Part shown: piece by piece, positions 19,407 to 20,888 of the stretch | How the letters are laid out: each line of letters begins with the position of its first letter | How positions within the stretch are numbered: the stretch's first letter is position 1 | From: Nitrosopumilaceae archaeon | GTDB taxonomy: Archaea; Thermoproteota; Nitrososphaeria; Nitrososphaerales; Nitrosopumilaceae | Direction of reading: 5' to 3' | Assembly (NCBI GenBank): GCA_965200155.1 | Contig: CBDATR010000050.1 | Coordinates: 1 to 29,625 of the forward strand | DNA length: 29,625 bases | Position numbers and translations under genes: made by a program | Notes under the pieces: model-generated | What the model saw: the letters and a program-made list of their open reading frames with translations, nothing else | The model's database searches: none | What the model was told of the DNA's origin: nothing

Positions 19407-20006
19407 TTACCACTGTATGCCTTTCATTAGCCCCATGAGCAGGCGTTGTTCAGGGGAAGGTTTGCGCTCCTGCACGACAGCGTTTTGTGCAGGCTCATCT
19501 TCCTTCTTCCCTTGTGCGGCTTTCGAATCTTCGAACATGTTGTAGCTGGTGCTCATCATCAGTTCGCTCAAACGTGGCATCACTTCGTACATCGCAAGAG
19601 CCGACAGGCCCATACGGGTTGCGATACGGCTTGGACGACGGATGATGGCTTTCACAATCAGGTCAGCGGCTTCTTCAGGCGTCAGGGTCGGCACGTTCTG
19701 ATAGAGCTTGGTGGGCGCAATCATCGGGGTGCGAACCAGCGGCATGTTGATGGTGGTGAACACAACATTTTTGTCAGCGTATTCGGCGTTTGCGCAGCGG
19801 CTGAAGGAATCCAGCGCGCCTTTGGAAGCAACATACGCAGAGAAACGCGGGCTACCCGCCAAAACACCGATGGAGGAGATATTGATCACCTGACCGTCAT
19901 GTTTCTTCTCCATCTCAGGCAGACATCCCATAATCATACGCATGGCACCGAAGTAGTTGATGTCCATACAGCGTTCGAAGTCGTGGAAACGGTCGTAGCT
20001 GTTGTC
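19407..20006 (-). CDS. SDR-family fatty acyl-CoA reductase (Acr1-like), C-terminal part only; 5' end lost at the junction
   Basis: DNSYDRFHDFERCMDINYFG...INISSIGVL...PRFSAYVASKGALDSFSRC...TTINMPLVRTPMIAPT. The Rossmann TGxxxGIG and NNAG motifs are missing, and an in-frame TAG lies just upstream. Confidence 0.92.
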   Translation of the reverse strand, partial: DNSYDRFHDFERCMDINYFGAMRMIMGCLPEMEKKHDGQVINISSIGVLAGSPRFSAYVASKGALDSFSRCANAEYADKNVVFTTINMPLVRTPMIAPTKLYQNVPTLTPEEAADLIVKAIIRRPSRIATRMGLSALAMYEVMPRLSELMMSTSYNMFEDSKAAQGKKEDEPAQNAVVQERKPSPEQRLLMGLMKGIQW

Positions 20007-20025
20007 TAATGGCTACCTGCACATC
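20000..20025. other. Junction between bacterial DNA (left) and animal-like DNA (right)
   Basis: A bacterial CDS is cut mid-domain. GC and CpG frequency fall abruptly. To the right are an LTR retrotransposon and GT-AG exons. Confidence 0.92.
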
Positions 20026-20305
20026 AGGTACACCTTACAAAGTAGGCCAAAACATGACACTATTATCCACTTTTAAATAAATTACTAGCCTCCCTATCCC
20101 ATCTTTCACCTCCATCCCCTCTTGCTATGCCCAGGGACATCTAGCCCTACTTTGACTTTTCGTCTTCCATAATCTTCACCCCCTGCCCCTAGTCTAATAT
20201 AATGGTCTTTGACAGAAAATACATTTCCCACACTGATCTGGTAATGGTCTGTACAAACCACCTGATGTATCCACAGATATTACTGTACTATCTGATGATA
20301 TAAAT

Positions 20306-20359
20306 GATGATGTCACATTCGTAGGTACTTCAGATGATGTCACAATTGTAGGTACTACA
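20306..20359 (+). repeat. 27-bp tandem repeat, 2 copies
   Basis: gatgatgtcacattcgtaggtacttca / gatgatgtcacaattgtaggtactaca. Confidence 0.9.
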
Positions 20360-20680
20360 GATGGAACATCTACAAAAAATAAGAACAATATACACAATAA
20401 ACCAGGACCACAGTCTCAACAATCTGCTAATAAGACGTCTGATCCATACATATAATGATATTACCTGTGTGCTCAAATTTACATTACAATAATTTTACTT
20501 AATGAGATTTCCTATTGATCAGCAGTTATTTCTCTAAAGTGCACTTAAATTGTGAGATTGCTGTGAAGTGTGTTGGTCGTTTTTACAATGACTAACTTGT
20601 GTATTATATCTAAAACCAAGGTTCTACCCACAAAGGTCAGTGGTGGACACCACCTCTCAACTACTGTAACTAGCTATGAC

Positions 20681-20888
20681 TGTAGTGTGGTTAAATTAGT
20701 AGTAATTAAGTTGTCATAATTACTTGACAGTCAAGTCATTTATAATTTGTAACATCTATATAAGTATTGTGTTGGGCAGTAGAGTTTTGTGTTATCTCAG
20801 TATCAAGTTACTAAATAGCTAACCAGCTAGAGCAAGTTACCGGCTCTTCGTACAATAAACCACCTTCTGGCCACCGAAAAACACTACA
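20681..20888 (+). repeat. 5' LTR (208 bp) of the Ty3/Gypsy element
   Basis: Begins TGTAGTGT and ends ACACTACA (perfect 8-bp inverted termini). TATATAA at 20757, AATAAA at 20854, followed 2 nt later by TGGCGAC. Confidence 0.88.

Follow-up and report, generated by a model that had tools for sequence, protein, structure and literature searches.

An apparent junction of symbiont and sponge DNA in an archaeal genome assembly is very probably a chimeric contig

In the nuclear insertions that Wolbachia has left in arthropods and nematodes, large bacterial segments lie within the genome of the host. True insertions of this kind are sequenced at the depth of the host, are crossed by reads or PCR products over both junctions, are inherited among individuals and have usually begun to decay. 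The contig described here resembles them in appearance only, in that a long stretch of symbiont DNA stands next to host repeat DNA; unlike them, it fails on depth, on bridging of the junction, on presence in other individuals and on host DNA at both sides. A different origin of such joins is offered by the sequencing library itself. Ligation-based long-read libraries contain 0.02-3.17% chimeric reads, and the part of the study by Tvedte et al. (2021, PMC8495745) cited here cautions that these can mimic the integration of bacterial DNA in eukaryotes and hinder its validation. As in the chimeric reads treated in that part of the study, the fragments in our contig are unrelated and joined without homology, although here we infer the long-read cause.

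Chimeric contigs, together with mis-binned ones, are also known from metagenome-assembled genomes (MAGs), where 'non-redundant contamination' escapes marker-gene scores, as set out in the part of the GUNC paper considered here (PMC8201837). The likeness to the cases in that part of the paper is twofold: sources are mixed both within a single contig and among the contigs of a single bin, and the marker-based contamination of the bin is low (0.39%), as with non-redundant contamination. Unlike those cases, the foreign material here reaches across three domains, a core of archaeal sequence being accompanied by a bacterial segment and by animal DNA, and the misjoin lies inside a gene and without shared sequence, which makes a chimeric molecule more plausible than a graph error at a repeat.

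The window analysed, 29,625 bases without a single N, is the entire contig C50 of an assembly of 51 contigs and 2.38 Mb, rated at 87.6% completeness and 0.39% contamination. The original prediction, made from the letters of the window, was that bacterial DNA switches abruptly to animal DNA inside a reductase gene, and that misassembly or a chimeric read would be a likelier cause than a real transfer. Genes, GC content and the observed/expected ratio of CpG (CpG o/e) do change together at 20 kb (Table 1), and the public data described below bear out the preference for an artefact.

Table 1. Features of the window, and host-like contigs elsewhere in the bin.
Feature	Position or contig	Strand	Basis
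Bacterial (Endozoicomonadaceae-like) segment	1-20004	.	Pfam, Tex identity, collinearity, CpG, public contigs
3' fragment of two-domain SDR reductase gene, 5' side cut by the join	19407-20004	-	NF005539/PRK07201, adh_short
Chimera breakpoint (very probable)	20004-20005	.	public contigs, GC/CpG switch
Animal-type DNA right after the break	20005-20680	.	CpG depletion, depth, partly repeated in host
Decayed Ty3/gypsy-type retroelement copy, high-copy in host	20681-24576	+	Pfam order, depth
Aspartyl protease	21419-22129	+	Pfam
Reverse transcriptase (RT)	22219-22632	+	Pfam
RNase H	23042-23599	+	Pfam
Integrase	23744-24115	+	Pfam
Weak integrase-core match (rve_3, under Pfam cut-off)	24076-24576	+	Pfam
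Two diverged copies of a unit, ~2.95 kb apart	25564-26678, 28554-29625	-	direct repeats, 82-93% identity in best blocks
Host-like contigs	C2-C4, C6, C8, C11, C14-C18, C21, C26-C29, C32, C33, C38-C41, C44, C45, C47, C49		

The left side is gene-dense, with a GC content of 0.508 and a CpG o/e of 0.82, and its Pfam matches comprise Tex, glutamate-cysteine ligase (GshA), Hsp33, two alpha/beta hydrolases, AzlC and an ankyrin-RING protein. The contig begins within a bacterial FKBP-type gene that runs off its end. From there as far as the break the bacterial genes are uncut, and neither CpG decay nor gene decay is seen. The Tex protein shares 90% identity with its counterpart in Parendozoicomonas sp. 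and 88% with the one in an uncultured Oceanospirillales MAG; the next six relatives listed (four Endozoicomonas records, a Kistimonas MAG and an Oceanospirillales bacterium) follow at 72-74%. Positions 6204-19323 are moreover collinear with a locus of Parendozoicomonas (L009). On the strength of these identities and this collinearity, 'Endozoicomonadaceae-like' is the right description of the left partner, and the original prediction had named the same family.

Two further genes of this segment deserve a remark of their own. The ankyrin-RING protein (552 residues, 13057-14715, plus strand) has an N-terminal RING finger followed by ankyrin repeats, and its gene sits on a stretch of lower GC of about 2.7 kb (12463-15193) between Tex and Hsp33. 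These two genes adjoin in a locus of the Oceanospirillales MAG (L010) and are separated by other DNA in L009. No close relative of the protein was found. Its best match covers 51% of the query at 31% identity, and a RING family appears in none of the other 119 listed matches except the query's own record. We regard the protein as a candidate E3-ligase effector of eukaryote-like type, encoded on a small island. Nearer the contig start, an internally repetitive frame of 254 residues (1354-2118, plus strand) matches the Pfam family HC2 (histone H1-like nucleoprotein; E 1e-24). Many internal DNA repeats fill 1240-2118, and L010 has a similar repeat region; the frame may encode a real nucleoid protein or may be a mere low-complexity match.

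The join itself cuts a reductase gene. An open frame on the minus strand, 19407-20012, matches Pfam adh_short over positions 99-189 of 195 only, that is, over its C-terminal part, and the model it fits best is NCBIfam NF005539/PRK07201, a two-domain SDR family, of which it covers positions 464-657 of 657 with 271 bits against a cut-off of 549. There is no full-length NF005539 match above the curated cut-off, and the gene is a fragment rather than a whole member of the family. As the model is covered only from position 464, about 460 N-terminal residues are missing, and not about 100. Homologues at about 60% identity, which their sources call 'SDR family NAD(P)-dependent oxidoreductase', align up to 20003 only, and public contigs (X5 record 9 and X1 record 7, described below) cease to match the window at 20004; the break therefore lies between 20004 and 20005. 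The predicted interval of ~20006-20013 was right in placing it inside the reductase gene and a few bases too far to the right. On the minus strand, the reductase frame is closed by a stop just upstream of 20012. Across the break GC falls from ~0.51 to ~0.38 and CpG o/e from 0.82 to 0.22, with the CpG switch completed within one 1-kb step. Such an abrupt change of taxon and composition inside a gene is the behaviour of a chimeric contig.

No end of a mobile element coincides with the break. No tRNA lies there, no direct or inverted repeat flanks it, and among the frames scanned no integrase or IS gene was seen beside it, those at the break and its left neighbours carrying SDR and AzlC domains only. 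In agreement with the prediction, neither an insertion sequence, an integrase nor a gap was seen at the join. A 72-residue frame on the right (20237-20455) yielded nothing beyond a sub-threshold Pfam match, and the two sides share no sequence at the join, or at most one ambiguous base. A search of the rest of the bin with full-length homologues and with the NF005539 model did not recover the missing 5' (N-terminal) part of the reductase. Nor is there an intact reductase locus in 30 relatives of the bin, which have only generic SDR paralogues of at most 34% identity, because these relatives are archaea. In L009 of Parendozoicomonas sp., the closest relative with a name, a remnant of 59 residues of the reductase C terminus (1748-1924) is found directly upstream of AzlC; the reductase is thus not conserved at the locus, which provides no reference for the intact gene. 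An exact 35-base word taken from the left of the break had 0 matches in metagenome_contigs.

The right side (9,621 bases) has a GC content of 0.378 and a CpG o/e of 0.22. Its first 676 bases hold only 4 CpG (CpG o/e 0.18) and a 27-nt tandem repeat at 20306-20359; in the run X5 their word depth is 852 and 306 in two bins, and many reads diverge beyond 20254. What follows is a retrotransposon, as the original prediction held: protease, RT, RNase H and integrase domains stand in Ty3/gypsy order, each in its own broken frame. Word depth over this element reaches 1,100-8,900 in X5, and the reads of X7 and X8 are mostly 95-99% alike. The boundary of this multi-copy repeat falls between 20680 and 20681, where the upstream sequence carried by 89 X7 reads and 56 X8 reads does not resemble the window. 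The repeat thus does begin about 670 bp past the break, as had been predicted for an LTR, but the reading as an LTR found no counterpart, since no second copy of 20600-21100, such as the LTR pair of a Ty3/gypsy element would give, is present in the window. Each of the two copies of the unit near the contig end holds one minus-strand open frame (26320-26655 and 29248-29598); the two frames are related, encode 111 and 116 residues and have no Pfam match, and 25564-29625 may represent a host gene with repeated (domain) exons. Elsewhere in the assembly, the host side has no matches except two short ones on C33. Its repeats are present in 'sponge metagenome' runs and in whole-genome runs of one host species. 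The right partner is repeat DNA of a sponge-labelled host, in line with the sponge-like host first proposed.

The bin in which this contig was placed belongs to neither partner. An archaeal RpoB model matches C5 (69595-71406) with 873 bits, above its cut-off, and archaeal AmoA is encoded on C24 (323578-324126; 384 bits); the core of the bin is an ammonia-oxidising archaeon. Tex is found in 0 of 20 genomes of its kin and Hsp33 in 0 of 14, so that the bacterial half of C50 is mis-binned as well, and both halves are therefore foreign to the archaeal bin. Beyond C50, 26 of the 51 contigs are host-like. They are 2.3-11 kb each and total 144,816 bases, with GC contents of 0.355-0.421, CpG o/e of 0.10-0.42 and mostly few long frames, and by tetranucleotides they cluster with the right half of C50; they are host DNA within the archaeal bin. 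The join in C50 and the binning are alike faulty. The marker-based contamination comes to only 0.39% because foreign DNA of this kind brings no duplicate archaeal markers. Three more contigs, C19, C30 and C37, cluster with the left side of C50 by tetranucleotides. A DNA search of C19 and C37 against two Endozoicomonadaceae genomes and two archaeal relatives, run without a positive control, gave no match. C20 and C36 (6.6 and 7.9 kb; GC ~0.49, CpG o/e 1.08) form a tetranucleotide group of their own, separate from the archaeon, from the group of the C50 left side and from the host; a fourth source may lie behind them, perhaps a virus or plasmid, or else a further microbe.

The decisive evidence comes from public sequencing data. 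We compared positions 16000-24000 with four runs of three studies: X1 and X5 as Logan contigs, and X7 and X8 as raw Illumina reads. X1 is a sponge metagenome from a study other than that of X5, and X7 and X8 belong to a third study under the same species label as X5; shares of the runs X2, X3, X4, X6 and X9 were left out of the evidence. In X5, a bacterial contig of 7,615 letters and depth 3.68 (record 9) matches 16000-20004 over its positions 2629-6633 with 0 differing letters, and then carries on for 2,628 more letters (the first of the record) that are unlike the window. In X1, a contig of 974 letters and depth 7.3 (record 7) matches 19456-20004 over its positions 426-974 and continues with 425 further letters that are again unlike the window; the X1 contigs over 16000-20004 likewise show 0 differing letters. 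The bacterial contigs of two studies thus depart from the window at the identical base, and the bacterial partner continues differently in independent data, as expected where a contig is chimeric. At their other end, X1 record 1 and X5 record 9 both reach exactly 982 letters to the left of 16000, and so have their ends near 15018, in the interval that separates the ankyrin-RING gene from Hsp33; this coincidence may reflect a branching of the assembly graphs in both runs, for instance between strains with and without the island.

Sequencing depth tells the same story at the break. The last bin on the left, 19738-20004, has the depth of the single contigs just described (3.68 in X5, 7.3 in X1), so no other contig crosses the break, and in the next bin depth rises to 852 and 444. 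Read from the depth table, with 16 of the 275 contig pieces listed, neither X5 nor X1 has a contig that bridges 20004 and 20005. The lowest depth on the right side in X5 is 83.5, on an exact contig of 227 letters (20305-20531), which makes the step from 3.68 at least 20-fold; as nearly all of the right side is repeat, this step is not one measured against the exact depth of single-copy host DNA. In X7 and X8, of which 1.69 and 1.88 billion letters were read, all 15 bins of the left side (4,005 bases) have a depth of 0 and all 15 bins of the right side are covered, by 1,067 and 673 reads respectively. No read bridges the break in either run. Most of these right-side reads are 95-99% alike (961 of 1,067 and 604 of 673), as expected of a repeat family, and the least covered right bin still has ~1.8x in X7 and ~0.8x in X8. 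At such coverage, a fixed insertion would have given some tens of reads on the 4 kb, where 0 were observed. The total lack of bacterial reads on 16000-20004 in X7 and X8 also means that the symbiont is not detectably present in every host sample. Among the checks that the original prediction had called for, depth on either side of the junction, sequences spanning it and bacterial sequence running on past it all came out on the side of an artefact.

Neither host-level depth of the bacterial DNA nor support of the junction by independent contigs or reads was found in X1, X5, X7 and X8, the insertion was not seen in other host individuals (X7, X8), and the window has a single junction rather than host DNA flanking both ends of the bacterial DNA. 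Because the break is unbridged, depth steps up across it and the left side is absent from the other host individuals, a fixed or heterozygous germline insertion is excluded in the material of X5 and in X7 and X8. We conclude that C50 is very probably an artificial chimeric contig, an artefact of assembly or library, and records no transfer into an animal genome. The continuation of the bacterial contigs must be weighed with some care here, as a real transfer would likewise leave the symbiont with an intact copy of the donor gene, which is therefore not decisive alone. Two properties of the data also bear on the other readings. Logan contigs discard rare variants, and the missing bridge accordingly shows that the join is uncommon, not that the molecule never existed. 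X7 and X8 are other samples, with which a private insertion need not be shared.

A real and very recent germline insertion of at least 20 kb of symbiont DNA into the genome of the sequenced host specimen would agree with the clean join, which has no gap or N, and with a symbiont that lives in the host, both partners occurring in the same runs. The lack of CpG and gene decay on the left side speaks against an insertion, even if undecayed bacterial sequence would suit a very recent one. In X5 the break is crossed by no contig, and depth changes there from 3.68 to at least 83.5. Of the reads of X7 and X8, which carry the species label of X5, none falls on the 4,005 left bases, although their right-side bins have at least ~1.8x and ~0.8x. 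Furthermore, host DNA is present on one side only, the contig starting inside a bacterial gene, and we regard such an insertion as exceedingly improbable. A real but rare molecule is a second reading: bacterial DNA integrated somatically in only a few cells of the host, or bacterial and host fragments linked in vivo, for instance when host cells digest bacteria, could exist well below the bacterial depth of 3.68, and contig data discard rare variants. Nothing speaks positively for it, it would look in these data the same as a ligation chimera of the library, and the bacterial sequence beside the break is 100% identical to contigs of the free symbiont; we hold it to be very unlikely. The same low standing is given to the more general claim that the join is a real, very recent integration, private or somatic, of at least 20 kb of Endozoicomonadaceae DNA beside a retroelement in some sponge cells. 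Were that integration real, it would be a first: a large piece of symbiont DNA found inserted in a sponge host before any decay had set in. The opposite direction, with host DNA including a retroelement fragment taken into the bacterial chromosome, draws some plausibility from the eukaryote-like ankyrin-RING gene, which suggests that the lineage may have acquired eukaryote-type sequence earlier. The chance of it is nevertheless vanishingly small, given that bacterial contigs of two studies pass 20004 with other sequence and none of them enters host-like DNA, that the contig never goes back to bacterial sequence, and that the right side retains the CpG depletion of the host and the depth of host repeats.

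We propose the following account of how the chimeric contig may have arisen. Very probably as an artefact, about 20 kb from a sponge symbiont of Endozoicomonadaceae-like type was attached, midway through the reductase gene, to 9.6 kb of host DNA rich in repeats. Since the join is without shared sequence, a chimeric template or read is the most likely cause and a graph error through a repeat is unlikely; two fragments would most likely have been ligated to each other during library preparation, and the resulting read could have lengthened the end of a bacterial contig of low coverage (depth 3.68 in X5). A misjoin by the assembler would be the alternative cause. Both the host part of C50 (9,621 bases) and the separate host-like contigs (2.3-11 kb) would be of the size of single long reads. 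C50 was afterwards placed, along with the 26 host contigs, in the bin of an unrelated ammonia-oxidising archaeon.

On the best reading, that of an artefact, the junction has no biological meaning. Its importance is one of data quality: an archaeal genome that a public taxonomy uses as a species representative includes about 20 kb of gammaproteobacterial origin, one contig in which bacterial and animal DNA are fused, and 26 contigs of the host, at a marker-based contamination of no more than 0.39%. Automated screens for horizontal transfer, for eukaryote-like proteins or for archaeal retroelements would be misled by this record, and the case shows which public data suffice to dismiss an apparent symbiont-to-host transfer.
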